Part shown: positions 11,654 to 64,000 of the stretch, piece after piece | Layout of the letters: every line of letters starts with the position of its first letter | Numbering within the stretch: position 1 is the first letter of the stretch | Source: Schmidtea polychroa | Taxonomy: Eukaryota | DNA: 64,000 nucleotides | Direction: 5' to 3' | Assembly: GCA_044892525.1 (NCBI GenBank) | Contig: CM097885.1 | Location: 26,972,001-27,036,000 of the forward strand | Position numbers and translations under genes: made by a program | The notes under the pieces: generated by a model | The model's input: the letters and a program-made list of their open reading frames with translations, nothing else | What the model was told of the DNA's origin: nothing | The model's database searches: none

Positions 11654-11705
11654 AACATGTTTTTCGACTCATTATATAAACAATATTTGTAGTACATCTT
11701 TTTAA

Positions 11706-12329: not shown

Positions 12330-12348
12330 TCAATTGAAAAGATTAATA

Positions 12349-12867: not shown

Positions 12868-12928
12868 ACAATGGGTGGTAGTCCTTCATTACCGAATTTC
12901 AAACTTGATTTTAATTCAAATTGTTGCA

Positions 12929-15341: not shown

Positions 15342-16554
15342 AACTGAATTGTGTATTTTTGATCGTCCGTCTCCACAAGTAGTAATTGAAAATGGAATAT
15401 TTGAAGATGTATTTCCTATGAATTCAATTACTGATTCAAGGAATGATGTAGAATTTTTTGTTAACGGTTCACAGACTGAATATTTAGATTTGAATGACAC
15501 TCTATTATCCATTCAACTGAAGGTTGTAGATAAAGACAATAAAGATCTGGCAGATGGTGTTGATGTAATTCCAACCAACTACATGTTTCATACTCTATTT
15601 AAAGATGTTATTCTGGGTTTTAATAATATCAAAATCGAAGGTGGCAACAACACATATGCACACAAAGCTTTAATTGAAACAATTTTAAACTATAACGGAG
15701 ATACAAAAAGTATTTGTCTTGCGCCGATGGGTTATGGAAGTAAAGATTTTAGGAAAACATGGATTGCGAAATCAAGACTGTTTTCAATGTGTTCATCATT
15801 ACAACTAGATTTTATGGATCAGCCTAAATATTTACTACCAGGAGTCAATGTACATATTCGTATGAAGAGATCAGACTCAAAATTTTGTTTGGATACATCT
15901 GTAGCTGGAGCATCACCAAAATATCAGTTGGTTGATGCAAAATTAATGGTTCGCCGTGTACGAGTTGAGTCATCAGTGTTGGCAGGCCATCAGATTGGTC
16001 TTAATTCACAACATGCGATTTATCCTATCAAAACCAAAGAAATTGTTGCCTTTGCAATAAGTAAAGATTCATCCTCATTTTATAAAGAACAAATATTTGG
16101 CGATAAACGTTTGCCAAATTTTATTCTTGTAACCTTCCAATCAGAAGCACAATATAATGGTTCATATACAGAAACTAGCTCAAAATTCGCACATTTCAGT
16201 ATGACTTCTTTAACTTTATCAAAAAATTCCGATTATCGTGAGACATATACTCAAGATTTCGACAACGATAACTATGCTGCGACCTATATGCAATCTATAG
16301 TTCGAAATATGGGTTATTTAGATAAGAATTTAAATTGCGGAATCGACATTGTAGATTTTAAGACCAAATATCCTTTCTTTACATTCATTTTGGCTCCAGA
16401 CTTTGATTGGAATCAAAGTCAATTGCCACAAAATGGAAATCTGAGACTTGATATTAAATTCAACAAGGCTTTAACATCTCCTGTATATGTAATTATTTAT
16501 GGAGTTTTTGAAAGCGAAATACAGATTTCAGCAAATCGGTCAATTCTAGTTTAA
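15325..16554 (+). CDS. Major capsid protein (double jelly-roll, hexon-like)
   Basis: Polinton MCP patterns KTELCIFDRP..Q, YLDLNDT, KYLLPGV and GNLRLDIKF...L...VYVIIYG. Confidence 0.9.
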   Translation: MMISGKTELCIFDRPSPQVVIENGIFEDVFPMNSITDSRNDVEFFVNGSQTEYLDLNDTLLSIQLKVVDKDNKDLADGVDVIPTNYMFHTLFKDVILGFNNIKIEGGNNTYAHKALIETILNYNGDTKSICLAPMGYGSKDFRKTWIAKSRLFSMCSSLQLDFMDQPKYLLPGVNVHIRMKRSDSKFCLDTSVAGASPKYQLVDAKLMVRRVRVESSVLAGHQIGLNSQHAIYPIKTKEIVAFAISKDSSSFYKEQIFGDKRLPNFILVTFQSEAQYNGSYTETSSKFAHFSMTSLTLSKNSDYRETYTQDFDNDNYAATYMQSIVRNMGYLDKNLNCGIDIVDFKTKYPFFTFILAPDFDWNQSQLPQNGNLRLDIKFNKALTSPVYVIIYGVFESEIQISANRSILV

Positions 16555-16567
16555 ACAAAGATGAAGT

Positions 16568-16969
16568 ATGGAGTAAGTTGAAGTATGGAGTAAGTTTACT
16601 TTCTAATAAACGATTTACTTGATTAGTTCTGTTCAGCTTAATTGTATTGCAACAAATCTGTTTGGAGACAGGTTTTTAGGAGTTTATCCGCTGGATAAAA
16701 TCCCTTTTCTTGAAAGTAACAATGCTTTAATAGTCAATACCCAATCATCAAGTCTCGATGGCGAACATTGGCTAGCAGTATTTGTTAAACCTGAAAAGAT
16801 TAAAGTGTTTGATCCGATGGGTTACTATTATCCGCCTCTGTTAGTGTCGAAGTTGTCGAAATTATCAAAACCTATCGTGTACAATAGAATTCGTTATCAA
16901 GAACCGCTAACAGTTACATGTGGACAACATTGTATTGTTTGGTTATGTTTTGAGTTTAATAAATATTAG
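16568..16969 (+). CDS. Adenain-type maturation cysteine protease; probable micro-exon ATGGA plus intron (16573-16626, or 16590-16626)
   Basis: Catalytic motifs GEHW, FDPMG and Q...TCGQHC; no in-frame ATG unless spliced, which gives MDSVQLN. Confidence 0.88.
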
Positions 16970-17114
16970 TTGGTGTTCATTTCTTTATTTTCAAAAATAA
17001 CTAAAATAACACAGTTTTTGTACAATATTTTATTAAATAACAATAACAACTCTTTATATACATAAAAAATAGAATGTCTGTTTGAGGAAATTTGACAGTT
17101 GATTTCACATATAA

Positions 17115-20100
17115 TCATGCAAATATATTATCATCATTATCAACAATATTTATACTATAGTGTCCATATGCAAAACTTTTGTTCCGACCCACCCATACCC
17201 TTTTATCATCCTTATTTGACAGAGCCAAATTTGTTGATTTAAATGTGTAAAGTTGATGATTTTTGGACCCAAGCCTCGTTTGTATGACTTTAGGTATTTC
17301 CATTCCATTAAAACAGTCGATGGATGATTGATGATCTATCTCAGTTTCATTCAATCTAATACCTTTGGCTTTAATAGTTTTCTTTGGACCACCCAACAAA
17401 CTATAAAGCTTTGGCCGAAGAAATATCCATTCATCATATAGGACTCCCTTACTTTCATCCTTAAACTTTCCTATAACAGAATCTAATCTTCTGTTATACA
17501 GCGGATGAGACGAATTATAATTAGATGCATCCAATAGATTATCTTGGATCATAGCTTCTAATAATGTTTGCAATTTAAGATTCTTAATTTCCAAGAAGAA
17601 CGAATCCGTATCCCCTGCTGCTATATTAATCTCACAATTGAACTGTTCACGATACTTTTGTAGTTCTATATACTGCAGCTCATACATTCTTAGTTTGGAG
17701 AGATCTAAAACTGTTTGTCCAATATACGAAGGTCTATCCAAACATACAACATCAGGGTTCATAATTGCAGCTATTAAATCATCTGCAATCTTTATACTTC
17801 TCTTGAAGGTTGGTTTTGATGAATATGTTACCATTTTTCTTTGTGAATTGCACAACCTTAAATTCATCCTCTTCTTTAAATTTTCCACTGTTTTCCCATA
17901 TAAACTGTTGTTTAATAGTTTATAATATCCCTTCTCCAGTTCAGATGTTGATTGAGCCCTCAATTTGGTGTTGGCTTCCACATATTCCTTGAAAATAGTT
18001 GATTGGTTAAACTTGATTGCCCGATGTATATTTGTTACTTCAACTCCTAAAAACATATACATTTTCAATAGTCGCCAATGAATTACATAGTTTTTCTTCG
18101 GGTAATGTGTTAACAGAAGCTTTTCCACTTTTGTTCCTTCTGGACACATCTTCTCTGGTGCAACAGGTAAATCGTCTAATAAATCATGAATTTCATCTGG
18201 AATATTCATATCAACCTCCAACGTATATCCATATGGTAAATTCTCTAGGTTTGATGATTTACACTCTTCTAGAATAGTGTCCAAATCAGTATGGATCCAT
18301 TCAAACTTTCCATATGGCAAACTCTGACTAAGTGCCCATCCATACAAGTTATTTATATCGATATATAATAACTCTGTATTTTCATCTCTTCTGACTTGAT
18401 GTTTATTAACGAAAGTCATACCTCCTCGAATGCCAGCTTCATAATAATTATACATTTCATTATCTTGCAACAATTCAATAGGTCTATCCAATGACATTAA
18501 TGCCGATGCCCATGTCATTCCCGGAATACTGAAAAAATTTAAAGGTTCCAATCCATTATGGGCTAGTGATTTAGTTCTGAATTGTTGAAAGTAATCTGCT
18601 AAAAGATATACATCCAACTTTAGATATATCATCATATAGTCTAAAAGGGTTTCACATCCGGTTTCAGACCATATGTTCACTGCTTTATCATATGCGGCTT
18701 GTGACACTCCTTCCCAAATTGGTGGCAATTCTCTGGTTTCTCATAGAACTTCCAGGCTTGTGGCAAAATTGTATGGAAAAATACCTTTTGAATCCTGTAT
18801 TGTTCCCGTAAATGCTGCATTTGTAATTGGTAAACTGTTTATTGTTTTTACTGCATTATCCAAAGATTCATTTACAAACTGATATGAATCAATGAATTTG
18901 ATCTTTATTTGCTTACAATGCGCAATAAGCGTAAGAAATTTTTCGGATGTTGTCGGAATACAACTCAAATTCCAGTGAGGGAATTTATTTATGCCATATT
19001 TTAAAATATGATGCATATCATAACCTCTCCGGTTATGAAATACTACTGGAAGCACTCGACGTACTCTTCTTGAAAGATTACATTTTCCACATGCCGCACC
19101 TAAATATTTCCCGCTGAAATGATCATGATCTCGAACCAAATGATCACAGTGTTCCTTACATATATAACAAAATGATTGCATATTAAAAGAGGATTGTTCC
19201 GTTGGACTGAGAATTAAAGGTTGTTTACCATTTCTCTGGTAATAATGATTTACTTTATTTTCTGCTATTTCCTCTACTTTCTTTAAAAAATCAAATATAC
19301 AATTTAACCCAATAAATTGAAAATATGAGGAAGCTCCGCTAAAATTGTTTATCAGCAAAAGTCCAGCTGAAATCGGTAAGTGTTTCTGATGGTATTGCTG
19401 ATCGTCTGGTAAAATAGATTCGAAATCAGCATAGATTACGAAAGGTGGAGTCACTTTCTTCGACCAATCTTTGAATCTGAGCTCTTTTTCTGTTGGCATA
19501 ACGTACAAAGTTGTCCCAAGCTGATTTTTCTTACATAAAGCCAGATGTCTTTCATATGTCAATTGTCTCCGAAATCCATTTAGACAATTTACACACCATA
19601 TACATTGAATTCGAACTGTACAATTATTGGATACATGACAGTTCATTAACCTGTTGATATTAGGTATTCCAACGTAATGGTAATTATTACTTTCACTTAG
19701 TAATAATAAATATATTGGTGTAACATCTTTAACCTTTGTCCTCCTAATTATGTCTATATTCGGATGTTTCATAACAACATCATCATCATTATTTAAATAT
19801 GTATCATCCGACTCGTATGAGAGAACATTGATCGCCAATCCTGGATTCTGATCTTCAAATTTCTTTATGTCATTCAATGTTGTCGGAGGGTTTTCCGAAT
19901 CGTAATTTACTTCATTCATGTACCGATAATATTGTGACGGTCTGTTACGGTTTTCATGAATGTCTTCGTATTTCAATATAGACAAAACGCTGTAGATAAA
20001 ACACAGATTGTCTTGATTTTGGATGTTTATAATTTTATTCTTTAATGATGCCGGGGTTCTTATATGTCGATGTCCAGACAATCGACTAATTTCGGCAAAC

Positions 20101-21276
20101 TTTGTTATTTTAAAATTAATCTCCAGTATCCTGTTAAGACGCCAACTGCTACCCAACTCCGATCTAATAGCAATTTTCTCATTCAAACTTTCGATTCCTT
20201 CATCTAAAAAGTCATCTGTTAATTTTGTGGCTCTGTTTGAAATTCTTGCAGTCTTCAGCTCACCGTCTTTGACGAATTCTGCATTGATCCCGAACTGTAT
20301 CTTAACGCTCTTCATTTCATTTATACAAGCGTTTAATTTTATCAGCAACCTTGGTGGAATAACTATTTTTTGTATATTATAACAAGATATGTCCAGTGTG
20401 ATAATTCTATGTGTTCTGTATAAATCACATTCAATTTCCGGTTCATCTGATATTCCTGCTCCTGTTTGAAAGTCATCAACTAGTGAGTAGTGATCTGCAT
20501 AGTCAGTACTATCACTGTCAACATTCGATATATTTTCGTTTTGATCATTGAAATCTAGTTCTTCTATTATTTCAAACGATCCATTATATCAATTTCTTCT
20601 TCTTCAGATCTTCCAACGTCTTCGCGCCTTGAACTTCCAGCTTCTTCGCGCCTTGAACTTCCAGCTTCTTCGCGCCTTGAACTTCCAGCTTCTTCACGCC
20701 TTGAAGTTCCAGCGTCTTCACGCCTTGAACTTTCAGCTTCTTCATGCCTCGAATCTTCTTCCTCGAATCCATGATTTCAATTATTTCTGAGTTTGCATTT
20801 TCTATTTTCTCCAATCTTGCTTTTTTATTTTTAATTAAGTGAGTGGAAACCTTTCTTTTGATAAGCTTATCTTCAGGCCTTGAACTTCCAACTTCTTCAC
20901 GCCTTAAACTTCCTGCTTCGTTGCGCCTTGAACTTCCAGTTTCTTCATGCCTCGAATCTTCTTCCTCCGAATCCATGATTACAATTATTTCTGAGTTCGA
21001 TATTGTATTTTCTATTTTCTCCAATCTTGCTTTCTTATTTTTAATTAAGTGAGTGGAAACCTTTCTTTTGAAAAGCTTATCTTTACGCATCACAAATTGA
21101 TTTAAATGTGTCTTATGCGTGTTATAAAAGGACATGTAGGGATCGGAACTTAAAGTTTCGCAATATGGGCATAAAAAGTAATTTTGTTGATAATATGTTT
21201 TGCCATAATATGTTTGCATGATTTTATGGCAGCTTTTATTGTGACTACTGTTTTGACAATAATTTGGGTATAACAC
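17115..21276 (-). pseudogene. polB: Protein-primed family B DNA polymerase polyprotein; in-frame stop at 18741-18743 and apparent frameshifts at about 20580 and 20765
   Basis: ExoI YADFES, EndoVII-like RDHDH...ACGKCNL, ExoII HN..GYD, ExoIII YLKLDV, motif A YIDINNLYG, motif B KLLNNSLYGK, motif C DTDS; the two track ORFs are in the same frame. The N-terminal extent (20349-21276) is less certain. Confidence 0.92.
20610..21082 (-). repeat. 24-bp coding tandem repeat (EEAGSSRR) plus a larger segmental duplication in the pPolB N-terminal region
   Basis: CTTCTTCGCGCCTTGAACTTCCAG units; the KLxKRKVSTHLIKNKKARLEKIEN block occurs twice. Confidence 0.9.
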
Positions 21277-22057
21277 ACCTTAAAATAAATAATGATTTAA
21301 ATATTTATTAAATGAATTTTATTTTATTAAAATAATTCGGGTTTCCCTTTTGTGTTCCATATATTTTGAGAAAAAAGTTTTATAATCACAAACAATGTGT
21401 AGTTTATTTTATTCAAGTGTAAGACATCCGACAAAAAACCATTACTTTATAAGTTAAAAATGCTAAAGGTAAACGGATGCATTTGTAAACAGTTTCTATG
21501 TATTGACTATTTTTTTAGTCAACAGAGGTGATTATGATTTCATACCTTATGTTTACGTGAATACAGATTTCTGTGACCAAGCTATTATGCAAGTGATGTG
21601 ATTTCCAGTGTACCATGGAAAGTATGCAATAAAGCTAGATCAATAATATTGTATTCTTATTGGTACATAAAGAATTCTTTGCGTCTCCTATAGAGTATTG
21701 ATGATAGCAAAAACAATAACTTGTAATGTTTATACTATTTTAATAATATTAAAAATAAATTAAAATTATTATAAAATTTATTAAAAAAATATTAATGTTG
21801 TTTAGTTTAATATTATAAATAAGACGATACAATTGACATTTTTACCGTTTTTGTCATTTTTACCATTTGATATTTTTTTTTTAAACAAACATTATTTATG
21901 TTTAAATTTGTTTAAATATAATATTAATTATATTTTAAAAAGACACCCAATGGAGAAAATCTCAAAGAAAATCTCAAATTCACAAAGATTTGTATCTATT
22001 TTTTCAATTTTAATTTATTAAAAATATATATATATAAAATAATAATCCTTAATTAAA

Positions 22058-22620
22058 TCTAATATATAAAGATGAAAGTTTGTTTGTTTTCTATAGAATT
22101 CCCCACCGTCGGACCTAGGATGCTGAAATTTTACACGTGGCCCTCATTTGACTCGGAACAGGTCATAGACTATGTTTCAACCCCAGGTGACTACCCCTAA
22201 GTACCCTTAGTCGGATTTATTTTGTCTGTCCGGTCAGCAATTTACCATATAAATAATAATTTATTATATGCTTGCTACTTGAAGTTAAAAGTAATATAAT
22301 TTAGTCAAAAATATTTAAAGCAGAATTCAAACTTATAGAATTTTATTTGATTAGTTAACCAGTTTGCAATTGGAAAAATATTACCGGTTATTTTTGATTT
22401 AAATTGAAGGGTTTTCGATTTTACAAATTGAAATTTATTTTGAAAGCTTTTCTTATTGTAATTAAACATAGAATCGAAACTTATAAAATTAATACTGGAA
22501 CGTATTACCATCATTAAAAAATTAATTTAATTGTATTATATAAAATTAATACTGGAACGTATTACCATCATTAAAAAATTAATTTAAATGTATTATTATG
22601 AAAAGCGGGTAAAACATTTA
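22058..22620 (+). mobile_element. Possible non-autonomous Helitron-like insert inside the Polinton
   Basis: A|TCTAATATATAAAG...GTTTGTTTG 5' pattern; degenerate GCGGGTAAAAC near 22606; no clear CTAG end; internal ~58-bp tandem duplication. Confidence 0.4.
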
Positions 22621-23207
22621 ACTTATTATAAAATTTATTAAAAAAATAGTATTTAATTAAAATTTAATTTATTATAAAAATTTATAACTTACATGTATCA
22701 TAGAAATCTTCCATATCATTTCCTTGATCGATATCACAACATATTTTCTAAGCGAAAAACTTAATATATATATATATTAAATAAATAAAGTTTACCGTTT
22801 GTTTTTTAATATTTGGCATTCTTCTTCTTTTATTTTGAATGAATAATATCTGAAAGAAAAGAAAATAAATATTTAACAAGAGCAAAATAAAATCTTACTT
22901 GTTAGATAAAAATTAATTGATTAATTGAAATTCAAATGTAATATTAAAACAATAGTTAATTATCTAAGCAACTATTGTTAACAACCAAATAGAATCTTCT
23001 AGAATTTTTTTTATATAACTAAGAATATTCTTTTTATTCATAGATTTTGTTCATAGTTAAATAATAACTGATTATTGTATCTAAATATTTATTGTTACCA
23101 ATCAACTAGAATGTTCTAGAATGTTCTAGAACATTCTAGGTTGATCTAGAATGTTATTATTAATATGTAAGTAATAAATATGAATTTGATGCAAGTTAAA
23201 TTAACTA

Positions 23208-23642
23208 TCAAAGTTTATAAATTTTTATTAAATTGACAAAAAATATAATGAAACGTTTAAACATAGTTCTTAACCAAAAATGTAACTCTAATTTTTTTAT
23301 ATATTTCCAGTCACCATTTTCTTTGATCCATGGGTATATTTTTGTAATTTCTTGCACTGGCCAGTTCATATATTTTGGATGTTCATTTGGGCATAAAATA
23401 AGAATGTTTCTGACATACATTAAGCTAACGATGACTTTAAACCAACATATACCATCCTCAAACAACGATTCAAAGACATCCTTGAATGTTTTTTCCTGAT
23501 TACCTTCCGATGATAAAATAGAAGAGAAATCAATGGTACATCGAAGCTCTACTTCTTTTATTATTTTTAATAAACAATTTATTGTTTGATCATCACTTTT
23601 ATAAATTAAACCATTGACAATGGCGATTATGTATTCATTCAT
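23208..23642 (-). CDS. Bcl-2 family protein (viral-type)
   Basis: BH1-like FKDVFESLFEDGICWFKVIV, BH2-like PWIKENGDW, hydrophobic/basic C-terminal tail. Confidence 0.82.
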   Translation of the reverse strand: MNEYIIAIVNGLIYKSDDQTINCLLKIIKEVELRCTIDFSSILSSEGNQEKTFKDVFESLFEDGICWFKVIVSLMYVRNILILCPNEHPKYMNWPVQEITKIYPWIKENGDWKYIKKLELHFWLRTMFKRFIIFFVNLIKIYKL

Positions 23643-23797
23643 TGTAAAAATGAATGTATCTTGAAATTAATATGCAAGATTAATGCATATTTTGTTTGGT
23701 TAATGTAACAAGTATTTGATTTGTTGATAAAATGAACAAATGAGAGATGTATGTGAGACAGTGTGTGTATAGAACTTAAAGTTTATCATTATTTCAA

Positions 23798-24208
23798 ATG
23801 TTGAATATGAAGAATGAGCAACCGTTATTTAAAGCAACTTATATTTTTCATGAGCATCAAATACATTTACTAGTCAATCCGATCAATTACAATTTGTTGA
23901 TTCCTGTTGAACTAGTGAAAACTAGTTACAATTACTGGATTGAAGAATTCTCTCAAGAAGATCAAGAAGCGATTACTACAATATTTGGACGAATCAACAA
24001 GCAACTTATAGTTAATGAAAATGGTTCATTCATAGGCGGTCCATCAACGAAATTTTATGATGAAGACGAGAATCAAATCCCATTTAAACCTAATGCTAAA
24101 TGGAATATGAAAATTTGCATTCAAGGTTATAAAATAGCGCCAAGTACAGCAATATTACCTATATGGAAGATTGTAAGTGGAAAATTGCAAAGAAATTATG
24201 TATGTTAA
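23798..24208 (+). CDS. Hypothetical Polinton protein, possibly an OB-fold ssDNA-binding protein
   Basis: Intact 136-aa ORF; C-terminal TKFYDE...MKICIQG...PIWKIVS is reminiscent of viral SSB beta strands; function is inference. Confidence 0.55.
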   Translation: MLNMKNEQPLFKATYIFHEHQIHLLVNPINYNLLIPVELVKTSYNYWIEEFSQEDQEAITTIFGRINKQLIVNENGSFIGGPSTKFYDEDENQIPFKPNAKWNMKICIQGYKIAPSTAILPIWKIVSGKLQRNYVC

Positions 24209-24401
24209 TATCTTATGTTATTTTTATTAAATAAATGTTTCTGTTTAAAAATCGTGTTGTTATGATATCATAATTTGGTTGTCATAATAATATTTAAAAT
24301 TTAAAATAATCAATATAATTACCTAGAGTTATCCATTATTTTCAATAATATTAGTAAATATTAATTACCGTGGACGGGTTTCATTAAAAGTTATACAAAA
24401 T

Positions 24402-24797
24402 ATGAATTTTCCTTATGGTAAACCTCAGCAAATAATAGATAAAACTGATAATTATACAATTATATTCTTCAAGACAGGGAAATGTCGAATAATGGGTTGC
24501 AAAAAACCTATTGAAAGCATACATTATAATATTAAAGATGTTCATCTTCAATCTTGTACAATTACTATTGATATCAAACAACTAATTAATTTGCAATATT
24601 TGTCAAAGAAAACAAAATGTGTATATGAACCAGAAATATTCCCGGGTTTGCGTCTCATATCTTATAACCCCTTGTGTGTAAACTTGTTTTCTAGTGGAAA
24701 AATAGTTGTACTTGGTTTAAAAACTCTAAATTATAATTGGATTGTCAACAAAATTATAAATGATGTAAATGATTTGATTGGTTCACAAAAACTATAA
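24402..24797 (+). CDS. TATA-binding protein (TBP)-like protein; frame open upstream to about 24327
   Basis: Two TBP repeats: IIFFKTGKCRIMGCK and YEPEIFPGL...VNLFSSGKIVVLGLK; upstream in-frame LVNINYRG resembles the first strand. Confidence 0.88.
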   Translation: MNFPYGKPQQIIDKTDNYTIIFFKTGKCRIMGCKKPIESIHYNIKDVHLQSCTITIDIKQLINLQYLSKKTKCVYEPEIFPGLRLISYNPLCVNLFSSGKIVVLGLKTLNYNWIVNKIINDVNDLIGSQKL

Positions 24798-24833
24798 ATA
24801 TTGTACACTTTAACATTTGTTTCATTTATTACA

Positions 24834-25189
24834 ATGTCACAAGTTTCTGAAATCGGTAAATAAATATATTTTATTCTTAAATTTTAAAATTATGTTTAGA
24901 TTATCAAATAGAAATTCTAATTAATAAAGTGTTTGAGATTTATCCGGAAATCAAAGATGAAATTATAAATTATGCTCCGGAAATTGCACCAGCCAAAATA
25001 TTTCAGGCAACTGGGATTAACATAGAGCGCATTATTTTTCACCATAAATTTATGATGTATGGATATGAAAAGCAAACTCAATTACTAAAAGATTCATGTT
25101 GTCAATATCAATGTCAAGAATGTATTACTTACAAAAGAAAACAAACAGTAAACATTCTACTCAACGAATTGTATAAATATTTCAAATAG
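24834..25189 (+). CDS. Two-exon Cys-rich hypothetical protein (exons 24834-24855 and 24900-25189)
   Basis: A 44-nt GTAAAT...TTTAG intron joins MSQVSEI in frame to DYQIEILINKVFEIYPE...; CCQYQCQEC cluster. Confidence 0.7.
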
Positions 25190-25228
25190 TTTTTTAATAA
25201 ATGTTTCATTGTTTTGAAAATTTAATTA

Positions 25229-26023
25229 GAAATAGTAAATATTTTTTAAATTGCGCGCGAAAAATAATTTTTAAAACAAAGATTCGACATCTCTGATTTT
25301 AATTACATATAAAACAAAAACATTGGTATTAATATCTCTATTTATATTGGCTCTATATATTAATCAAATGAGTTTATTTAAACAAATATTCATAGTTGAC
25401 ACAATAACAGTATACATTTGAACAAAGATTTGAAATCTCCATTCAAAACTACTATAGAAAGCTGAAAGTCCCATCAAAATATGTAAATTTTACGATGCAC
25501 TGTCATAAATAGAATGGTTGAAAATATTTCAAAGTCCGTCGGACATAGCCGAATTTTTGAGAATTATCGATTGGTTTTACTTTTTCTTAATTCCTGGGAG
25601 AACCAAGAAACTTTTCGAGGATTTTATTTCGGAATCTCCTTAGTTGAATCAAGACGCAACTTTTTTGTTAAGGATGTCTCGACTAAATATACTTGGTTCC
25701 CAATGTTCCAAAAAATATTCCTTAAAAACGTGACATATATATTGAAAAGAAATCTTTTTGTTGATTTCATATAAATTAATCTGTGTCGACAAATAACAAA
25801 TCTTTTTTCGTGGACAATGTCTGGGTGAAATCTTTAATGTAAGAAAAGCACACCTGAATAAATTTTACACATTTTGCACATTTTGCACATTTTGCACTTT
25901 GCACTTAAAAATCAATATATGCGCGATAACTCATCGATCAAACGCGCAATAACTTATCAGCAAGGGGGGGGGTATATATGCGCGATAACTCATACTGATT
26001 CATGGGGCTCACATCTACCTACT
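25229..26023 (-). repeat. Right TIR of the Polinton (about 795 bp)
   Basis: Near-perfect reverse complement of the outer and inner parts of the left TIR. Confidence 0.95.
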
Positions 26024-32311: not shown

Positions 32312-32628
32312 TGTTAGAAGCTATAACATTTAATTCTTCGGTCATCAAAATAAATTACTAAGACTATTAAATCCAAAATTATATTTCATTAAATCTGATT
32401 ATATAAACAAATATTCTTGGGACATTTTCTAAATTTTAATTTCAACCAAATATCAACATACCATCGCATTCATACTTGAATTTCAATTTTATTAAAAATT
32501 ATTTTATTTTAAAATTTCAATTATCATTTCAATTTTAATATCTTAAAATAATTTAAGTTTCAATTAAAACTTTACAAATTTTAATCATGAACTAATTTAA
32601 TTTAGTATTTTAATTTTAACTCCTCACA
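32312..32628 (-). repeat. 3' LTR
   Basis: Direct repeat of 37056-37372 with one substitution seen. Confidence 0.97.
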
Positions 32629-35600
32629 TCCCCTTTTTTTAAAATGTTTGATCTTCTCAACATTTCTGACTACCATCTTCCCATTTTGATCTTTAAGTAA
32701 GTAGCTCCGTTCATGTATTTTCTTTATCACTTTGTACGGCCCTTCCCACCTTGCATCGTCTTTATTTCGAATTTCTTGTTTGATCAAGACCACATCTTCT
32801 ATTTCAAAATCTCTCACTGTTTTGCTTATTTTTGGTTTTAGTGTTTTATCCTCTATTCTCTTTTCCATATCTTCTCTATTTATTTCTTTATTCGAGTACC
32901 ATTTCATTCTGTCGATTTTCCTCCCAAATATAATCTCTGCTGGGCTTACTCCCGTTGTTTTTTGAACTGTTGCATTTAACGTATATTCTATTTCTGGCAC
33001 TATATCAGCCCAGTTTTTCCTTCCTCCTTCATTCAATGACGCGTTAATATACTCTCTGATTGTTCTGAATTGTCTTTCAATAATACCATTCGTGTTATGG
33101 TGATATGGGCTTGAGAAAATTAATTCAATGCCAGCTGCCTTTGCTAGTTCTTTTATACTTCTTGCTTCAAAGTTCTTCCCACAATCTACATGAAGTTCTT
33201 TTGGAGCTCCAAACTTTAATATCCATTTATTTAATAACGTCTCACTAATTGTTTTTTCGTCTTGCTTGTTTATGGCCGTTAATGAGATGTATTTACTATA
33301 GTGGTCAATGATTCCGCAAATATATTTCTTTTTGTTGAACGTTTCTTTCAATGGCCCACATATATCCATATATATCTTCTCGAATGGTTCTGTACTCTTT
33401 ATTGTTTGAGTTTCCTCCTTTGTCTTGGTTGTTATCGTTTTCATTTTCTGACATCTTTCGCAGTTCTCAATTACCTTTTTTACTTCCGTTGCTAAATTTT
33501 CCATGTCGCAGTTATTCTGGATATATTTTGTTACTTTCTGTGCACCTGCATGGCACAGCAATACGTGTACTTCTTTTATCATCCTCTGTCTATTATCTGA
33601 CGGTATCCATATTTTACCTTGCTTAGTTAGTACCGTGTTGTTTTCCATTATGAACTTACAATCTTTATTTTCTAACTTATTCTTTATTTCTTGGACCTCC
33701 ATATTGTCATTTTGCCACTTGTTATATCCGCCTTCTGCTGTTACTGTTACTATTCTGGTTTTAATTTTGCCGGTTTTTGCGTCTTCGTGTTCCATCATAC
33801 ACTGTACACATGTTCCGCATGTTTTCCTGGATAGCATATCCGCGTTTGTATGGCTTGTTCCTTTCCTGTATTTCATTTTAATATCCAGGCTGCTTAAATA
33901 GTTGATCCATGTCTGGAATTGAGCAGTTATTGGTTTCTTCGTTGTTACCATAAACGTAATAGCTTTATGGTCCGTTCTCAGTACGAATCTCTTACCATAT
34001 AAGTAATGGTTGAAATGTTTACAAAAATAGTATATTGCCAATAATTCTTTTCTGGTAATGCAGTATCCTTTTTCGTGGCTGCTCATCGCATGTGAACCAT
34101 ATGCAATGACATGTTCATGTCCTTTTTCATCCTTTTGCGAAAGAACTGCTCCAATAGTATCGAAGCTCGCGTCTGTGTCTAATATAAATTCTTTTCTGAA
34201 ATCTGGAAATACCAATACTGGGGCGGTTATCAATGCTTCTTTCATTTCCCTGAAAGCCTTTTCACACATCTCTGTCCATCTTATTTTCTCATTGTTTTTT
34301 CCGCATATGCTTTCTAGTGCTCTTGCCTTCTTTGCATAGTCTTTTATGAACCGTCGATAATAGTTACAGATACCCAGAAAGCTCCTCAGATTCTTCACAC
34401 ATTTTGGTTTTTGAAATGATTGTATTGCTTCTATCTTAGTATTATCTGTTTGTATGCCGTCTTTATTTATTATGTGTCCCAGAAACTTCACTTCTTTTCT
34501 AAATATTTGACATTTTTCGGGGTTCAATCTTAGTCCTGCTGTTGCGATCTTCCCTAGGACTTTTCCAAATATGTTATAATGGTCTTCTTCTGTCTTTGTG
34601 AATATTAGGATGTCGTCTAAATATACCATCACTCCATCTTTCCACAAATCTTTCAATACTTTCGTCATTAATTCTTGAAATGTTCCTGGTGCCGCTGCAA
34701 TACCGAACGGCATCCTGTTAAAACAGAACTGTCCTTCTTTTGTTGAGAATGCTGTTTTCTCTTGAGATTCTTTATCTAACTTCACTTGGTAATAAGCATT
34801 TCCCAAGTCGATTGAGCTAAAATATCTGGATCCGTGTAGGATGTCTAAAATTTCATCTACATTTGGCATTGGAAATGCTTGTCTTTCTGTTATCTTGTTT
34901 AATTGTCTGAAGTCTAGACAAAGCCTGATGTCTTTTTTCTCTTTCTTCCATACACAAACTAAAGGTGTGTTCCACGGTGAATTACACTTCCTAATTATTC
35001 CGTTGTTTTCTAGATTTTTTATTGCTTCCTCAATCTTGTTTTCCAAATTTATTGGCTGACGTCTCGGTTTAATCATTATTGGCTCTCCTTTCGTGATGAT
35101 CTTATGTTTTATCAGATTGGTACACCCAATGTCCCATTTATCTGCCATAAAAACATTCTTGTTTGCCTGAAATATTTCTAGCAGTCTCTTATTTCCGGTA
35201 ACTTTTAAAACGTCGATGGCATGACGTAATCTTTCTTCATCTGTTATAATCCGCCCAAATCTAGCTTCTATTTCGCAAATGAAATCACTACGTTTTCCAT
35301 GTTCTTCTAGTATACATTTCAATTCTATACCAAATAACCTTTGTAGTTCTACTCCTCCAATAATTTCTGGTATTAAATTCTTTACTATAATGAATGTTAC
35401 ATTTCTTTCAATACTGCCCATTTTAACATTGATGTTTATTTTACCCATAGTTTCTAATCTACTGTTGTTTGCACATCTTAGCGATTCCCTTGTTTCTAAT
35501 ATTTCGATATTTTCTAATCGATCAATTACAGATTTAGCCATCACATTAATTCGCGCTCCTGTATCCAATAAACAATCTACTTTCCGCCCTTGGATATCCA

Positions 35601-35946
35601 GTGTTGTACTCGGTCTACCTTGCATTATATTATATGTTATTACTGGACTTTTTTGTTCTTCTACTGACAAAATATTCTGCTCTCTAGTATCTTCTACAAT
35701 TTCATTAATACACATGTCTCCATTTTTCTTGAGGAATTTGTAAATTTTCTCTATAGTTCTTTCCTCGTGTTTTACTAATTCATTTACTTTACACTCCTCT
35801 TTAAATTTTTTCTGAATTTCCTTATCATTCGACTTTTTAATTTCTACACTACTATTATTATTAATATCACGTTCAAAAACACTACAATCTTTATCAATCA
35901 TACAATCATCATACATACTTAAATTACACATACCGTTAGCATTCAT
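32602..35946 (-). CDS. pol: Pol polyprotein (protease, RT, RNase H, integrase)
   Basis: LLDTGA, YLDD, LDTDAS, H-H-C-C zinc finger, YMDICG/HVDCG/IERQF triad, GPY motif; uninterrupted. Confidence 0.97.
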   Translation of the reverse strand: MNANGMCNLSMYDDCMIDKDCSVFERDINNNSSVEIKKSNDKEIQKKFKEECKVNELVKHEERTIEKIYKFLKKNGDMCINEIVEDTREQNILSVEEQKSPVITYNIMQGRPSTTLDIQGRKVDCLLDTGARINVMAKSVIDRLENIEILETRESLRCANNSRLETMGKININVKMGSIERNVTFIIVKNLIPEIIGGVELQRLFGIELKCILEEHGKRSDFICEIEARFGRIITDEERLRHAIDVLKVTGNKRLLEIFQANKNVFMADKWDIGCTNLIKHKIITKGEPIMIKPRRQPINLENKIEEAIKNLENNGIIRKCNSPWNTPLVCVWKKEKKDIRLCLDFRQLNKITERQAFPMPNVDEILDILHGSRYFSSIDLGNAYYQVKLDKESQEKTAFSTKEGQFCFNRMPFGIAAAPGTFQELMTKVLKDLWKDGVMVYLDDILIFTKTEEDHYNIFGKVLGKIATAGLRLNPEKCQIFRKEVKFLGHIINKDGIQTDNTKIEAIQSFQKPKCVKNLRSFLGICNYYRRFIKDYAKKARALESICGKNNEKIRWTEMCEKAFREMKEALITAPVLVFPDFRKEFILDTDASFDTIGAVLSQKDEKGHEHVIAYGSHAMSSHEKGYCITRKELLAIYYFCKHFNHYLYGKRFVLRTDHKAITFMVTTKKPITAQFQTWINYLSSLDIKMKYRKGTSHTNADMLSRKTCGTCVQCMMEHEDAKTGKIKTRIVTVTAEGGYNKWQNDNMEVQEIKNKLENKDCKFIMENNTVLTKQGKIWIPSDNRQRMIKEVHVLLCHAGAQKVTKYIQNNCDMENLATEVKKVIENCERCQKMKTITTKTKEETQTIKSTEPFEKIYMDICGPLKETFNKKKYICGIIDHYSKYISLTAINKQDEKTISETLLNKWILKFGAPKELHVDCGKNFEARSIKELAKAAGIELIFSSPYHHNTNGIIERQFRTIREYINASLNEGGRKNWADIVPEIEYTLNATVQKTTGVSPAEIIFGRKIDRMKWYSNKEINREDMEKRIEDKTLKPKISKTVRDFEIEDVVLIKQEIRNKDDARWEGPYKVIKKIHERSYLLKDQNGKMVVRNVEKIKHFKKRGCEELKLKY

Positions 35947-35969
35947 TCTTTGGTTAAAATCAATATTAC

Positions 35970-37056
35970 TTAGTAAATTGCTCCGATCAATGTCCCGTTT
36001 GACGGAGCGTGCTCGTTTGGGTCATTCTCCCTGTTATACTCGTCTGGCTGGCTTGACTGTTTTGTATTCATCATCTCATCATCAGACTCGATAGCTGCAA
36101 TATCTTTTCTGTTATATTGTTGGTTTCCCCATTGTCTTTGATGTACGTTCCTTGATTGATACATATCGTCCCTTTGTTGATAGGTATTTCTTTGAATTCT
36201 TCCTCCTGACATCTTCCTTTGGTCTCGATCTCTTCCTTGATTTCGTCTTTCCATATTTGTGTAGCACTCTCTTTCTTTGTGTCCTCGTGCATTGCATCTA
36301 TGACATTTGATTGTTGGGCATTCTCTTCGTATGTGACCTTCAACACCACATGCATAACATTGAAATCTTCTTTTTATATTACATTCTCTGCTACTGTGTC
36401 CCGGTTTTTGACACGTCCAGCATTCTATCACTTTAACTCTTGTCTCTGGTTTCCATTCGTTGATTTCTCTCTTCGTGGCTCCAACTTGTACTACATCTCT
36501 ATAAGTTCTTCCCCCAGTTGTAGGTCGTATTGATCTCACCGTGTTTACTTGTTCAATAACCTTGTTAACTTTTTCTATCTTCTTTATAGTTTCTTTAATT
36601 TGTTCCGCCGTTTTGAGATCTTTCATTTCGATTTCTTTCCTGACTTCTTTATCTCTTACACAATGTGTCAATAAACATTTCTGAATTTCTTCCTCATTCC
36701 AAGTGTGTGAGGCCAATTTTTTAGTCATTTTTGATATTTTCTCTATAAATATTTCCGCTGATTCGTTACCTTGCTCGTAGTTCAAGGCTTCTCTTAAGTC
36801 ATCAATCAATGACGTTGGTCGATGAAAAGCTGCTCTTAATTTCTGTTCAACGGTTTTACCTTCTGTGGTTTCATATTCTTCAATCAAAGTCCTGTCCAGA
36901 AGTGTAATAACTAGTACCATTTGGGTCTTCACTGGTGTCTTCGCTTTTTTCAAAGAACCTCTGACATTCTTTGATAAATAATTCGAGGTCATCTCCTCTG
37001 TGGAATTTTTCTGGAAGTAATCTTCCAATAAGCAGATCCGTTGGAATGGTCGCCAT
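35970..37056 (-). CDS. gag: Gag with three CCHC zinc knuckles; frameshift in an A-run at about 36945-36950
   Basis: CWTCQKPGHSSREC, CYACGVEGHIRREC, CHRCNARGHKEREC; the N-terminus MATIPTD...ECQRFFE is in a different frame. Confidence 0.9.
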
Positions 37057-37372
37057 GTTAGAAGCTATAACATTTAATTCTTCGGTCATCAAAATAAATT
37101 ACTAAGACTATTAAATCCAAAATTATATTTCATTAAATCTGATTATATAAACAAATATTCTTGGGACATTTTCTAAATTTTAATTTCAACCAAATATCAA
37201 CATACCATCGCATTCATACTTGAATTTTAATTTTATTAAAAATTATTTTATTTTAAAATTTCAATTATCATTTCAATTTTAATATCTTAAAATAATTTAA
37301 GTTTCAATTAAAACTTTACAAATTTTAATCATGAACTAATTTAATTTAGTATTTTAATTTTAACTCCTCACA
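37056..37372 (-). repeat. 5' LTR
   Basis: Adjacent to the PBS; direct repeat of 32312-32628. Confidence 0.97.
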
Positions 37373-58159: not shown

Positions 58160-59980
58160 TGTTGGGCTAGAACTGATTTCTAGACCCAAAATACTAATTG
58201 TGACTGAAATGTGTAGGTACACAGCAAGTAAAAAAGCACCAAGTAGAGTTAAATATTAAAACCTACACCAAATAAACAATATTAACTAAAGAAGAAAGCA
58301 ACAAAAACATAAACAAAGAAATTAAATAAAATTATACAAAAGCAAGAAGTGATGCAAAAATCTAACTCAAAAATAACCAAATAAACATAGAATTACCAAA
58401 AGCAAACTCGAATAACTTAAAAGACGATAAAACATTCCAGAAAAACCCAGAACATTCTATAAAATGGCGATGACCATCACAAAAGTCATCTAGAACAACA
58501 AAAGTTAAGGAAAATAAATAAATTAGTATTAAAAAAAAAAAATCTCAAAAAGAAATTCATAAAAACATCAGTTAAAATAAAAATTAAATTAAAAGTAAAA
58601 TAGAATGTTCTGGAACCGTTCCAAATCCATCATGGACGTAAAATTAATGAAAAATAATTAGAAAATAAAAATTCAAAAATAAAAACAAAAATTATAGCAC
58701 TAAAATTTCCATTAAAAATGTCAAAATCACGAAATAGAAAATTCTGGAATAAAAAGAATTCGAGTTTGTTTTAATGCATCAATACATACACGTGTACAAA
58801 ATAGGTATATATACCGACGCATTTTAGTCACAAGTTAAGCTTTATGCCAAAATTTTTTGTTGATATTACTAGCACTTTATTGAAATTTTAAAGTAAGCAA
58901 TATTTTGGTTATTTTATGCATTGTGTTATGTATTTATTAAACATTTAATCTTAATATGATTTATAAGTTAATCTTAATAGGACTCTATTAAATGAATTCC
59001 AGTTGAAATTTTTGTTTAAATTTTGTTTGAGGGATCAACATCGATCGAACTTATCATCGATTTTGATCCGTCTCACATACTAAATGGGTATCAATATTTA
59101 CAACGTCATTGTGCACGCAGCCTTGACGTAAGCAGGCCACTGCCTGGCATGCACCTCAATATTATAGTGGTGGGATCGTCGGAGGTCGTACCGACTCGGT
59201 GGTATACGCCGCTGGGTTCGTCGATGAATCACCTCCGGACGATGGAGTTCGCGGAACTCGTTATCGGTATTATAATACACGGTAGTATATTACCGCTTAC
59301 ATTCACAATAGGGGCTTGTCGTAGGGAGCACAGTGAGGCCCCGAAAGCAGGCAATATTTCTGTAAATTGACTTTTCACACGTATAATGTACATATAATCT
59401 ATACATTAAAAATCAACAGTGATACACTACCCTAAGGATGATAAATGGAGTAGAGCTCCGGACTCAAATTAACCACAATACACCAAATATATAGTTGGCT
59501 AAACATCTTTCGAGTTAGATTTATGAATCACTACCGACCATAAGAGTATTGATTAGGAAAGTAAAAAATTCTGCCCTTAAATTAGTATCCCCGACTATCC
59601 ACCTATTGATAAAAATATAAATCGTAATCTATAATTTGATATAAATTATAAAATTATGCTGAATTGATTTTTCATAAGATGGCGCTTTCTAAAAGCTGAT
59701 AATAGAGTATAAACCTATAATTTGATGTGAACTTATAAATTATATGAGTTACAAATTAAATATAGATTTTAAATTGTAAATCATAAATCGTAAATTATAT
59801 ATGAATTGTATAAATTACCAGTTATATACTTATGAATTATATAACAAAAAACCCTGCCATTAAATATATATATTATATAAATTGGAAATGATATACTTAT
59901 GTATTATATAGTAAAGAACCCTACCATTGTATATATAAACGATAAACTTATACTAATCGGTCTTTTAGAAAATATAAATT
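58160..59980 (+). mobile_element. TGTTGGGCT-family LTR-like element, 5' part; right boundary not visible
   Basis: Terminus identical to that at 46764; TATATATACCGACGCATT core shared with about 7853; donor GTAAGC at about 58893. Confidence 0.7.
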
Positions 59981-60089
59981 AGTAGATGGATTGGGCACCG
60001 CTGGCACAGGGCACCGCTAGCACAGTACCCCCCCCCCCCCGTCGTCATATTTTTCTAAAATATGGTAAGTCTAAAAGTACAATTTTTTT

Positions 60090-60841
60090 TAAACAAAGAC
60101 ATATGACTCATCAAGGTCATTGAAACAAAGACCATGACTCATAGTATGACTCATCAAAATTGTCAAGGTCATTTAAACAAAGACCATGACTCATCCTATG
60201 ACTCATCAAGGTCATTTTCAAGGTCGTATGACTCATAATATGACTCATCAAGGTCAAAAAATTTTTTTCAAGGTCATTTAAACAAAGACCATGACTCATC
60301 AAGGTCATTTTCAAGGTCAAATGAGTCATACTATGACTCATATGACCTTGAAAATTTTTTTCAAGGTCGTATGACTCATAATATGACTCATCAAAATTTT
60401 CAAGGTCATTTAAACAAAGACCATGACTCATATTATGACTCATCAAGGTCATTTTCAAGGGCAAATGAGTCATAATATGACTCATATGACCTTGAAAAAT
60501 TTTTTTCAAGGTCATCTGACTCATCCTATGACTCATCAAGGTCATTTTCAAGGTCATATGAGTCATAGTATGAGTCATATGACCTTGAAAAAATTTCTCA
60601 AGGTCATATGACTCATATGACCTTGAAAAAATTTCTCAAGGTCATATGACTCATACTATGACTCATCGAAATTTTTTCAAGGTCATATGACTCATACCAT
60701 GACTCATCAAAAATTTTCAAGGTCATTTTCAAGGTCACCTGAGTCATCCTATGACTCATCAAGGTCATTTTCAAGGTCGCATGACTCATCCAAGGTCATT
60801 GCCAAGGTCATATGAGTCATCGCGATGACTCATCAAGGTCA
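60090..60841. promoter_or_regulatory. Array of AP-1-type (TGASTCA) and NR5A/ERR-type (YCAAGGTCA) sites in the Polinton terminal region
   Basis: About 30 and about 25 copies respectively, counted by eye, in both orientations. Confidence 0.7.
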
Positions 60842-61003
60842 TATTATTATTTTTAAAAATATTATTATTTTTATTATTATTTTTAAAAATATTATTATTT
60901 TATTTTTAATTTTTTCAAAGTTCCCGCCAACGAAAATTAATAATCGATAGCTCATTTTAAAGCTCAATCCAAGACCTTTCGAATGAGCTATATATCTTGT
61001 TAC

Positions 61004-61040
<37 letters not shown>

Positions 61041-61192
61041 CTATATACTCCGAGTCAATATACTCCTAGTCTATCCGACAAAATATTTTGTCCCCCTATG
61101 GGTAATGCTCACAAGGGTACTGGTCACGCTCAACAAATCAACAAATCAACAAAACATACATTTATTTAAACAATAAAATTAACAAAGGTAAA

Positions 61193-61684
61193 CTAAATAT
61201 ATATAGTATGATATTCATTAATCAGTGTTGAACAGGCTTGACACTTCCGAACATTCTTCTCATGACACTTAGAACAAACAATTACGTGACCACACGGTAA
61301 ATACAAAACCGAAACTCGATTTTCTTTACAAATTGAACAAGTTAAATATCTTTTCTTAACATCTTTCAATTTTTTCGTTAGCTTATTTTCAATCAAATCG
61401 GCTTTCGCTATCCATTCATAAATCAATCTACTATATCCCGGTTTCAACCTTAAAAACATACAACTCCAAAAGTATTCATTCAGTGAATCGTTGTTTACTG
61501 CTATTTTTTCTAAGTACATTAAATAACAAGATAACTTTAAAATAGATTTCTCATAATTAAATAAATCAAACAAATATTCAATAGAGGAATGTTTGAAAAT
61601 TTTTAAAATATTTATGAGTTGCTTATCACTGTAAGTATCATGATTATTTATAAAATCTTCAAGTGTATTGTTAAAAAATGTCAA
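61193..61684 (-). CDS. IAP-type C-terminal RING finger protein (no BIR seen)
   Basis: CSICKENRVSVLYLPCGHVIVCSKC...CQAC...IYI at the extreme C-terminus. Confidence 0.85.
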   Translation of the reverse strand: MTFFNNTLEDFINNHDTYSDKQLINILKIFKHSSIEYLFDLFNYEKSILKLSCYLMYLEKIAVNNDSLNEYFWSCMFLRLKPGYSRLIYEWIAKADLIENKLTKKLKDVKKRYLTCSICKENRVSVLYLPCGHVIVCSKCHEKNVRKCQACSTLINEYHTIYI

Positions 61685-62538: not shown

Positions 62539-64000
62539 CTATTGATCTTCGTCCCATTCGCTGTCGTCAAAACTGGGACTTGGAGCTGCACTGAATTCGT
62601 CATCATATTCGCTTAATTCGTCAACTCCTAAATAATGCCCAAATGCGTAACTTAAGTTTTTTCCTAGCCACGCGCACTTATCATCATTATTACTTAGGGC
62701 AATTTTCGAATTTTTAAAAGTAAAAAGTTGGTGATTTCTAGTACCTATTCTAGTCTGCGGTACAGAAATCACCTGATTTGAATTATAGCAATTTAGATAT
62801 GTTTCATGATTTATTGATGTCCCAGATAATTTAACCCCCTTCGCTTTTACCGTTTCCTTACTACCTAAAAGACTATAACATTTAGGGCGTAAGAAAACCC
62901 ATTCAGAATACCCTAATCCCTTGCTCTCATCTTTAAACTTCCCGATGACCGAGTCAAGGTTCCTACTATACAAGGGGTGGGTTGGATCGTAATTTGACGT
63001 ATCCAATAAATTATCTGAGATCATTTGAGGTAATAGAGTTGTTAATTTTAAATTTTTAATTTCTAAAAAGAAACTGTCGGTATCACCGGCAATAATATTA
63101 ATTATACATTTATATTGGCGTCTGTACTTCTCCAAATCAATATATTGGAGCTGGTACATCCGCAGTTTAGACAGATCTAGTACTGTTTGACCAATGTAGC
63201 TAGGTCTGTCTAAACAAATCACATCTTTTTCCAAATGTGCCGCAATCAGATCGTTATCGATTCTTATGGACTTTCTGAAAGTCGGCTTTGAGGAGTATAC
63301 TATCATCTTTTCGGATGAATTACACAACCTCAAATTCATTCTTTTTTTCAAATTTTCAACCGATTTACCGTAAAGAGAGTTATTATACAATTTAAACAAG
63401 TCCCTATATATCTCGCTAGTAGACTGAGATCGTAAAGTGGTGTTGGTGTCTATGTAGGATTTAAAGATAGGTCCTTGTTTAAACTTTATACACCTATGAA
63501 TATTTACAACAACCGCACCTAATTCTATATACAATTTGAGAAGCCTCCAATGAAGAACATAGTTCCTCTTTGGCCAATGCGTAAGCATAAGCTTCTCAAC
63601 TTTTGAATTAGGTGGGCACAACTTTTCCGGCGCAAGCGGAAAATCATTCAAAAAGTCATGCACACATTCCGGAATATCGATATCGACCTCCATAGTATAC
63701 CCATATGGAAGGTTATCAATATCCGTGTTCATACATTCAAGTAAAACATCATTCAAGTTTTCATGCACCCAAGAAAAATCACCATAAAGAAGATTTTGGC
63801 TAAGAGCCCAACCATACAGATTATTTATATCAATGTACAATAATTCTGTATCATCTGAAGTAGCCGTGTAATGTTTGTTAACAAATGTTAACCCACCCCG
63901 GATACCTCCCTCATAGAAATTATACATTTCCATGTCCTGCAGAAGTTCTATTGGTTCCGTTAATGTCATAAGCGCTGAGGCCCATGACATACCGGGAATC
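62539..64000 (-). CDS. polB: Protein-primed DNA polymerase B, C-terminal part
   Basis: YIDINNLYG, KLYNNSLYGK, AGDTDS; collinear with 17115-18728. Confidence 0.95.
   Translation of the reverse strand, partial: IPGMSWASALMTLTEPIELLQDMEMYNFYEGGIRGGLTFVNKHYTATSDDTELLYIDINNLYGWALSQNLLYGDFSWVHENLNDVLLECMNTDIDNLPYGYTMEVDIDIPECVHDFLNDFPLAPEKLCPPNSKVEKLMLTHWPKRNYVLHWRLLKLYIELGAVVVNIHRCIKFKQGPIFKSYIDTNTTLRSQSTSEIYRDLFKLYNNSLYGKSVENLKKRMNLRLCNSSEKMIVYSSKPTFRKSIRIDNDLIAAHLEKDVICLDRPSYIGQTVLDLSKLRMYQLQYIDLEKYRRQYKCIINIIAGDTDSFFLEIKNLKLTTLLPQMISDNLLDTSNYDPTHPLYSRNLDSVIGKFKDESKGLGYSEWVFLRPKCYSLLGSKETVKAKGVKLSGTSINHETYLNCYNSNQVISVPQTRIGTRNHQLFTFKNSKIALSNNDDKCAWLGKNLSYAFGHYLGVDELSEYDDEFSAAPSPSFDDSEWDEDQ

Follow-up and report, generated by a model that had tools for sequence, protein, structure and literature searches.

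Both terminal inverted repeats of a Polinton in Schmidtea polychroa carry a dense array of sites of the types recognized by host transcription factors. Judged by its sequence and by the pattern of change among copies, the array is likely to be a host-controlled switch for the element. The left copy lies within the window, a stretch of 64,000 nucleotides, and its features are listed in Table 1.

Table 1. Features at the left end of the array-bearing Polinton, in window coordinates.
Feature	Position (strand)	Remarks
Target site duplication, 6 bp, TAAATT	59975..59980 (+)	Second copy after the right end, G000:C1:27051464-27051469
Left terminal inverted repeat	59981..61200 (+)	Starts 5'-AGTAG; 93% alike to the right repeat
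Terminal 109 bp	59981..60089 (+)	Two 16-bp GC-rich repeats; poly-C and poly-T runs of variable length
Motif array	60090..60841 (+)	30 AP-1-type, 25 NR5A/FTZ-F1-type (4 inverted) and 5 TCF/Sox-like sites; AP-1/receptor composite 17-mer
Inner part of terminal repeat	60842..61200 (+)	AT-rich repeats, TTA run
RING-finger gene, 108 aa	61193..61519 (-)	PF13920, 5.7e-10; reads toward the array; start approximately 680 bp from the inner edge of the array
Protein-primed DNA polymerase B gene, 3' part	62539..64000 (-)	Reads toward the array; frame extends past the window (L021:2516)

The array and the element that bears it

The array is real and non-random. Over its 752 bp the AP-1-type core TGA(C/G)TCA occurs 30 times, 28 of them as the longer word ATGA(C/G)TCAT, the receptor-type word YCAAGGTCA 25 times (21 forward and 4 inverted) and AAACAAAGAC five times. 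In 1,000 dinucleotide shuffles the corresponding means are 0.38, 0.05 and 0.005 (maxima 3, 1 and 1). Outside the array the window, some 63 kb, contains 1, 1 and 0 copies. The approximate numbers given in the initial annotation (30, 25 and 5) are borne out. We take the C/G-centre form to be the AP-1 consensus, and AAACAAAGAC is presumably of the TCF/Sox type. The sequence TGACTCA is given as the AP-1 consensus in PMC13513840.

The terminus had been described as built almost entirely from such sites. Motifs cover 75% of the array itself; the array begins 110 bp inside the terminal repeat and makes up about 60% of it. It had also been said that this is no fixed-period satellite. There is indeed no single period, yet the spacing lengths are mostly fixed and Tandem Repeats Finder reports internal duplications of 93, 144 and 237 bp. 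In the ends sampled below, the step between successive sites is 12 bp on 586 occasions for AP-1 and 467 for receptor sites, and the modules have GTCAT as well as this step in common. The array is a module-shuffling minisatellite in which spacer sequence varies more than spacer length. In direct pairs of receptor sites, two T residues following the first site are conserved, and in the cassettes at the ends most spacer bases are conserved. The array strand is predicted to fold at -160 kcal/mol (z -21.5), far better than shuffles, so that inversion might account for changes between C and G at the AP-1 centre. Two ORFs overlapping the array were rejected as genes, being by-products of the repeat. 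Immediately interior to the array, at window 60921-60928, there is a single word TTCCCGCC, which we take to be E2F-like, followed by a short inverted repeat.

The identification of the stretch as a Polinton terminus stands. The element is 19,483 bp long with a terminus at 59981, terminal repeats of approximately 1.22-1.26 kb that are 93% alike, 5'-AG...CT-3' ends and the 6-bp duplication TAAATT. The array is mirrored in the right terminal repeat, a check that the initial annotation had proposed. The polymerase part matches phrog_1907 (3e-11) and is 67% identical to the PF03175 protein of a second Polinton in the window, with no direct match in Pfam or PDB. The integrase gives an rve match of 1e-5, below the cut-off of that family, plus a chromodomain; there is also an A32-type packaging ATPase (Pox_A32, 3.6e-7) and an adenain-type protease (Peptidase_C5, 2.8e-6). 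By these features the element is classed as a Polinton. The candidate for the double jelly-roll major capsid protein is a 406-aa gene, which has no Pfam match, Atlas look-alikes at 0.98 and PF21738 on 15% of one cluster. A TBP-like protein (L022:2826-3263) is encoded head-to-head with the ATPase gene, and several ORFs are without a family match.

The genes diverge from a central point between the ATPase and TBP-like genes, and all but one small ORF read toward the ends. Because they read outward to the arrays, the arrays are downstream of the genes and are not proximal promoters; the nearest start codons are 0.7-0.9 kb from the arrays and that of the polymerase is 5.7 kb away. The inner terminal repeat supplies a predicted poly(A) signal and a stop codon common to the last gene of each end, the stops of the two end genes lying at the inner edge of the repeat, 1,213 and 1,216 bp from their respective termini. 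The terminal 109 bp, in which array motifs are absent, are presumed to comprise the core origin and the integrase end. Only two AP-1 words, and no YCAAGGNCR, occur in the element interior of approximately 17 kb.

Polymerase B, integrase, ATPase and protease genes, terminal repeats and the 6-bp duplication are all shared with Polinton/Maverick elements as described in PMC8097293, as the capsid-like gene may be, and the size and repeat length fall inside the ranges given there for vertebrate Polintons (12.7-24.6 kb and 46-1,447 bp). The end motif is AGTAGA as compared to (AGT)2 or (AG)3, and factor-site arrays in the repeats do not figure in the description drawn on here. A literature search, thin on subscription papers and Repbase notes, retrieved no published description of AP-1 or enhancer arrays in Polinton terminal repeats.

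The second Polinton (window 10134-26023, target duplication CGAGAA) has a capsid-like protein 77% identical to that of the first, also encodes a short TBP-like protein (window 24402-24797) and has a duplicated block in its left end. Its terminal repeats contain no AP-1 or receptor words and have 62-bp and 9-bp repeats instead. An LTR retrotransposon occupies window 32312-37355, with identical end repeats of more than 300 bp and a 1,114-aa pol ORF.

Conservation of motif cores among copies and subfamilies

The terminal 18-mer has 1,761 exact copies in the genome and its reversed control none, which would correspond to approximately 880 elements if all these ends are paired. The best-scoring capsid genes, considering the top-ranked 102 only, are 99-100% identical, and we regard the family as young. 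We examined 80 ends, of which 22 were chosen because they resemble the window and 58 for their location on contig C1; matching 6-bp target duplications are found in 32 of 37 sampled end pairs. An array, defined as at least five AP-1 cores, is present in 75 of the 80 ends, including 53 of the 58 chosen by position, and the five ends without one were excluded from the array tests. Across 53 ends the array spans 75-1,017 bp and begins, with its first motif, at a distance of 61-134 bp from the terminus. Many target duplications are near-palindromic, and the same 6-bp target word was used at three separate insertions with unrelated wider flanks (L004, L031/L032 and L069/L070).

Pairwise alignments were made of 30 end pairs within elements, verified by their target site duplications, and of 150 of 435 pairs between elements. 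The counts share ancestry and include paralogous alignments, and are to be read as effect sizes and not as probabilities: between elements the differences amount to 561/27,496 (2.0%) in cores, 9.3% at consensus-free positions and 1,730/16,040 (10.8%) in spacers. When the two ends of one element are compared the values are 128/7,356 (1.7%), 95/2,211 (4.3%) and 179/4,504 (4.0%), respectively. Because the counts are not independent, through shared descent and paralogous misalignment, p-values are overstated. Non-array parts of the terminal repeat differ by 0.7-1.7% within elements; cores therefore decay normally after insertion and gain almost nothing along the lineage. The claim that spacers vary while motifs are nearly invariant is thus supported for the cores, which change less than spacers in both comparisons, and has to be qualified for the spacers, some bases of which are conserved as strongly as the cores.

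The distribution of variants over the two ends of an element carries the same information. Variants found at one end only, as against both ends, number 69 and 9 in cores, 28 and 31 in AP-1 flanks, 10 and 38 at receptor position 1, 6 and 19 at receptor position 9 and 6 and 53 at the AP-1 centre. With receptor position 7 counted as core the figures are 108 versus 22, against 22 versus 110; variants common to both ends fall mostly at consensus-free positions. The 87 core positions have nine common minor alleles, several of them cross-matches between modules, and the 39 other positions have 42. In the last cassette, which is clearly orthologous and was compared in 73 of 80 ends, common polymorphism is confined to receptor position 1 (C/T, 61/11) and an AP-1 centre (C/G, 43/30). 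These patterns support selection on the motif cores in the element lineage.

Could the array be a neutral minisatellite, expanded by slippage, in which the likeness to factor sites arose by chance and palindromes together with template switching mimic conservation? The tandem duplications, the GTCAT and 12-bp step common to the modules and the strong folding all speak for such an origin, as do the unrelated repeats at the same place in other lineages. A neutral array should diverge alike at all positions of its unit, and this one does not: minor alleles are concentrated outside the cores, spacers diverge further between elements whilst cores hardly do, and the same words are kept through separate subfamily expansions. 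A mutation hotspot in the GAC context also finds no place in the data (see below). We regard neutrality as very unlikely; what is observed is a dense cluster of factor-site matches under constraint, as expected of an enhancer.

The positions that do vary are of interest. In the arrays the variable receptor positions are 1, 7 and 9, and these are the free positions of the consensus YCAAGGYCR (PMC3861103), which the array receptor words match; the AP-1 words match TGA(C/G)TCA with a free centre. This pattern is not clearly repeated across 15 loci of divergent subfamilies, where position 2 varied 19 times and position 7 seven times, with 172 words exact. Receptor position 7 is T in 92% of array sites and another base in approximately 8%, with variants to all three bases at 138 of about 1,440 sites, and in the end cassettes it is altered in 1 of about 217. 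Its variants occur at one end and at both ends in a ratio of 39 to 13, not different from cores (p=0.2). A GAC-context mutation hotspot was rejected, with 2/1,622 against 115/81,414 in 40 interior copies carrying 232 private changes, and accumulation after insertion is unsupported (rho -0.02 with copy decay; 8.2% versus 8.4%). As there is neither a hotspot nor a rise with decay, position 7 looks like standing variation of an active lineage. AP-1 position 4 is also raised, with 58 variants, the context counts being too coarse to tell inherited changes from recurrent ones. Over the 75 arrays both AP-1 position 4 and receptor position 7 exceed neighbouring core bases in mid-array and not in the end cassettes, and no matching excess is seen in the same trinucleotides of the element interior.

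Places that lack the terminal 18-mer of the window represent subfamilies with other termini; in three of these the polymerase parts are 71-82% identical. They retain the exact words with different spacers and different expansions. A receptor-TCF/Sox-AP-1-receptor cassette near the end is kept in several subfamilies, others have receptor-only or mixed arrays, and in two the outermost receptor site is found over 500 bp from the end. Receptor-only arrays with steps of about 18-19 bp and 38-41 bp were noted at L245, L250, L119 (52 receptor words within 1.7 kb) and L115, and trailing receptor arrays at L025, L039, L047 and L055. Related ends at L239, L240, L241, L243 and L246 have other bZIP-type words, CRE (TGACGTCA) and TTACGTAA-like, with up to eight per locus. 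For a penton-like gene (L021:7394-8461), compared with loci L131, L134, L137, L268 and L270, identity is 50-56% in some relatives even though their capsid gene and ATPase are 92-100% identical; in another relative it is 96%. Module exchange or fast evolution is the likely cause. Other Polinton lineages are abundant in the genome without these words. Gene-less fold-back and polymerase-only families (L251-L258 and L263) are likewise without AP-1 or receptor words and have modular end repeats of their own; the gene-less fold-back families, for which termini were found in 8 of 14 loci, belong to other lineages.

Beyond this genome, the cassette pattern gave no matches in metagenome contigs, and the 37 single, scattered matches of a 16-mer from the array in viral contigs are taken as chance. 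The capsid-like protein has 161 relatives, found without genomic context, and none in viral contigs. No stretch resembling the array turned up in an index of analysed sequences.

Candidate host factors and comparison with known systems

The host encodes an NR5A DNA-binding domain with an RGGR extension (L089), for which the best PDB match is SF-1 (1e-32) and the nearest named relatives are flatworm FTZ-F1 proteins (68-73% identity). Jun-like and Fos-like domains are also encoded, with matches to Jun/GCN4 and Fos (L189 and L187). An ERR-type P-box, judged by a motif that we take to be characteristic, was not seen among 30 of 53 host receptor matches. One host nuclear receptor has two DNA-binding domains in tandem (L100 and L101).

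Mammalian data indicate that ERR reads the same word as NR5A and that ESRRB and NR5A2 alike contact the base at position 7 only weakly (PMC8451941). Position 7 does not separate the two receptors, and its use as proof of NR5A over ERR was dropped. Schistosome FTZ-F1 is reported to bind the probes TCAAGGTCA and CCAAGGTCA, i.e. (T/C)CAAGGTCA (PMC8673669, S4 Table), and two probes with C at position 7 are given as unbound in the same paper. By analogy, the predominance of T in the array fits these probe data and the 8% of variants may be weak sites.

Might the words instead be read by a protein of the element itself, or be kept for single-strand hairpins in fold-back replication? The strong folding of the array strand, a palindromic polymerase-only derivative within the lineage and the several ORFs without a family would be compatible with this. 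No bZIP, zinc-finger receptor or HMG domain was detected among the element ORFs scanned, however, and the changes that are tolerated track the consensus positions of host factors. The number of inverted receptor sites at an end, moreover, varies between zero and several, and the arrays of certain subfamilies consist of direct receptor sites only. We consider either version extremely unlikely.

A more serious alternative is that the same host factors are bound mainly in the service of DNA replication or excision at the ends, in the manner of NFI and Oct-1 at the adenovirus origin. Support comes from the position of the array, which is present in each terminal repeat of an element with protein-primed replication and on the 3' side of all its genes. 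In the palindromic polymerase-only derivative of the family (G000:C1:24976661-24988590; L065, L066 and L267), which has the polymerase part in both arms (97.5% identical) and a target duplication, both arrays have been kept, as they have in a short RING-only copy, and the cassette near the end is common to several subfamilies. Adenovirus helper sites have a tight, fixed spacing beside the core origin; they are few, single and adjoin it. Here the distance of the first motif to the end varies as given above, array size varies more than ten-fold, and two subfamilies have their first receptor site far inside. In other lineages, families that have no genes or only the polymerase multiply although they lack the words, and retention of the arrays in the derivatives may be inheritance alone. 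Replication or excision as the main function seems unlikely, though less so than the other alternatives. An enhancer is a better fit than an origin of fixed geometry because, in the 53 ends, both the distance and the span of the array vary.

Two viral systems provide the closest parallels. The adenovirus terminal repeat, from a related protein-primed virus, also has host-factor sites (NFI and NFIII/Oct-1) and uses host factors for replication and, to judge from the title of a cited work, also in transcription (PMC6141750); the Polinton array differs in having approximately 60 sites over 750 bp, at variable distance and for different factors. The baculovirus hrs, 390-880 bp in length, are repeat arrays of a DNA virus of invertebrates and are likewise rich in host bZIP sites (CRE/TRE); they serve as origins and as enhancers, the strength of which correlates with site number (PMC13513840). 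They are dispersed and consist of units of about 72 bp with a 30-bp palindrome bound by viral IE1 (PMC13513840), a structure that the Polinton array does not share. It lies in both terminal repeats and has modules of about 12 bp with additional nuclear-receptor and TCF/Sox words and far denser TRE words. The array may work like hrs or adenovirus terminal repeats, yet it departs from the structure of both. 

Retroviral LTRs and the SV40 and cytomegalovirus immediate-early enhancers also consist of multimerized host-factor sites with copy-number variation. They are directly upstream of a promoter and functionally proven, whereas the Polinton array is downstream of genes. A mobile element with an NR5A motif is known in SINE B1, which is bound by the pioneer factor NR5A2, a protein with the RGGR loop also seen in the host protein (PMC11102866). 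Those are single sites in a retroposon, with a use for the host at genome activation, as compared to a dense array conserved in the lineage of the element itself.

A putative landing pad for host factors

We judge it probable, on the strength of motif content and core conservation, that the array is a landing pad for host factors which opens the ends of the element and enhances early genes from a distance. Slippage and template switching during replication of the element would shuffle the modules of about 12 bp. Copies with intact cores would recruit Jun/Fos-like dimers and the host FTZ-F1, and the recruited factors would help the element to escape from piRNA-guided silencing. They would also support transcription from the central divergent promoter, of the terminal genes, whose starts are 0.7-0.9 kb away, and of the polymerase at 5.7 kb. 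Elements with intact cores would leave more offspring. Planarian Polintons are reported to be piRNA-silenced, gaining H3K4me3 during differentiation (PMC8532177), and to be enriched in the B compartment (PMC10558129); a pad of this kind could be useful to the element because of that silencing and enrichment.

The initial annotation saw in the array a super-enhancer, a term that goes further than the sequence evidence, and coupled it to wound or stress and to hormonal or germline signals. Coupling to wounds or stress is a hypothesis drawn solely from the behaviour of AP-1 in other animals. In Hydra, injury leads to the opening of AP-1 sites (PMC8049744), and in RNA data on Hydra regeneration a Maverick falls into one cluster with Jun/Fos (PMC13465017); for a flatworm array these are analogies. 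A hormonal or germline link is a weak proposition; the flatworm FTZ-F1 study concerns the oesophageal gland (PMC8673669).

The abundance of the words raises the question whether their main effect is on the host, as decoys for AP-1 and FTZ-F1 or as co-opted enhancers of host genes. Genome-wide there are 97,461 copies of TCAAGGTCA (3,031 for the reversed control), 67,878 of ATGASTCAT (2,876 for the control) and 12,802 of the AP-1/receptor composite 17-mer (control 0). The subfamily of the window alone would supply roughly 30% of the first and 45% of the second, and at 12 of 12 other word spots sampled, all in the first 0.7 Mb of C1, the sequence matches Polinton loci. Against a main effect on the host, the conservation signal consists of variants inherited by both ends, i.e. 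it predates insertion, and once inserted the cores decay to the same degree as the rest of the repeat (1.7% versus 0.7-1.7%). The portable enhancer for host genes proposed in the initial annotation finds no support here: no host gene was recognized among ORFs of at least 100 aa in the transposon-filled 64-kb window, where several ORFs have no identity and genes with introns may have escaped notice. Planarian Polintons are, as noted, reported as silenced. We give this explanation little chance of being right. The words outnumber their reversed controls by factors of 24-32 and, in the places sampled, are mostly carried by Polintons. For this reason they could titrate AP-1 and FTZ-F1 and bias analyses of motif enrichment in this genome.

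A landing pad of this kind would bear on a wider issue, namely what switches on an integrated animal Polinton; particles are stated not to have been observed (PMC8097293). The array names candidate inputs, Jun/Fos, FTZ-F1 and TCF/Sox, in a host of the regenerating type. The different repeats of sister lineages suggest that Polinton families specialize on different host programmes. We offer one further proposal only tentatively and think it doubtful: that the lineage has wired its reactivation to the injury programme (AP-1 and TCF) and to an FTZ-F1 cell state, such that thousands of ends, holding most of the perfect AP-1 and FTZ-F1 sites, would together act, scattered over the genome, as an enhancer responsive to wounds or as a sink for factors. 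The host would have to keep it silent, and it could influence gene expression in regeneration.
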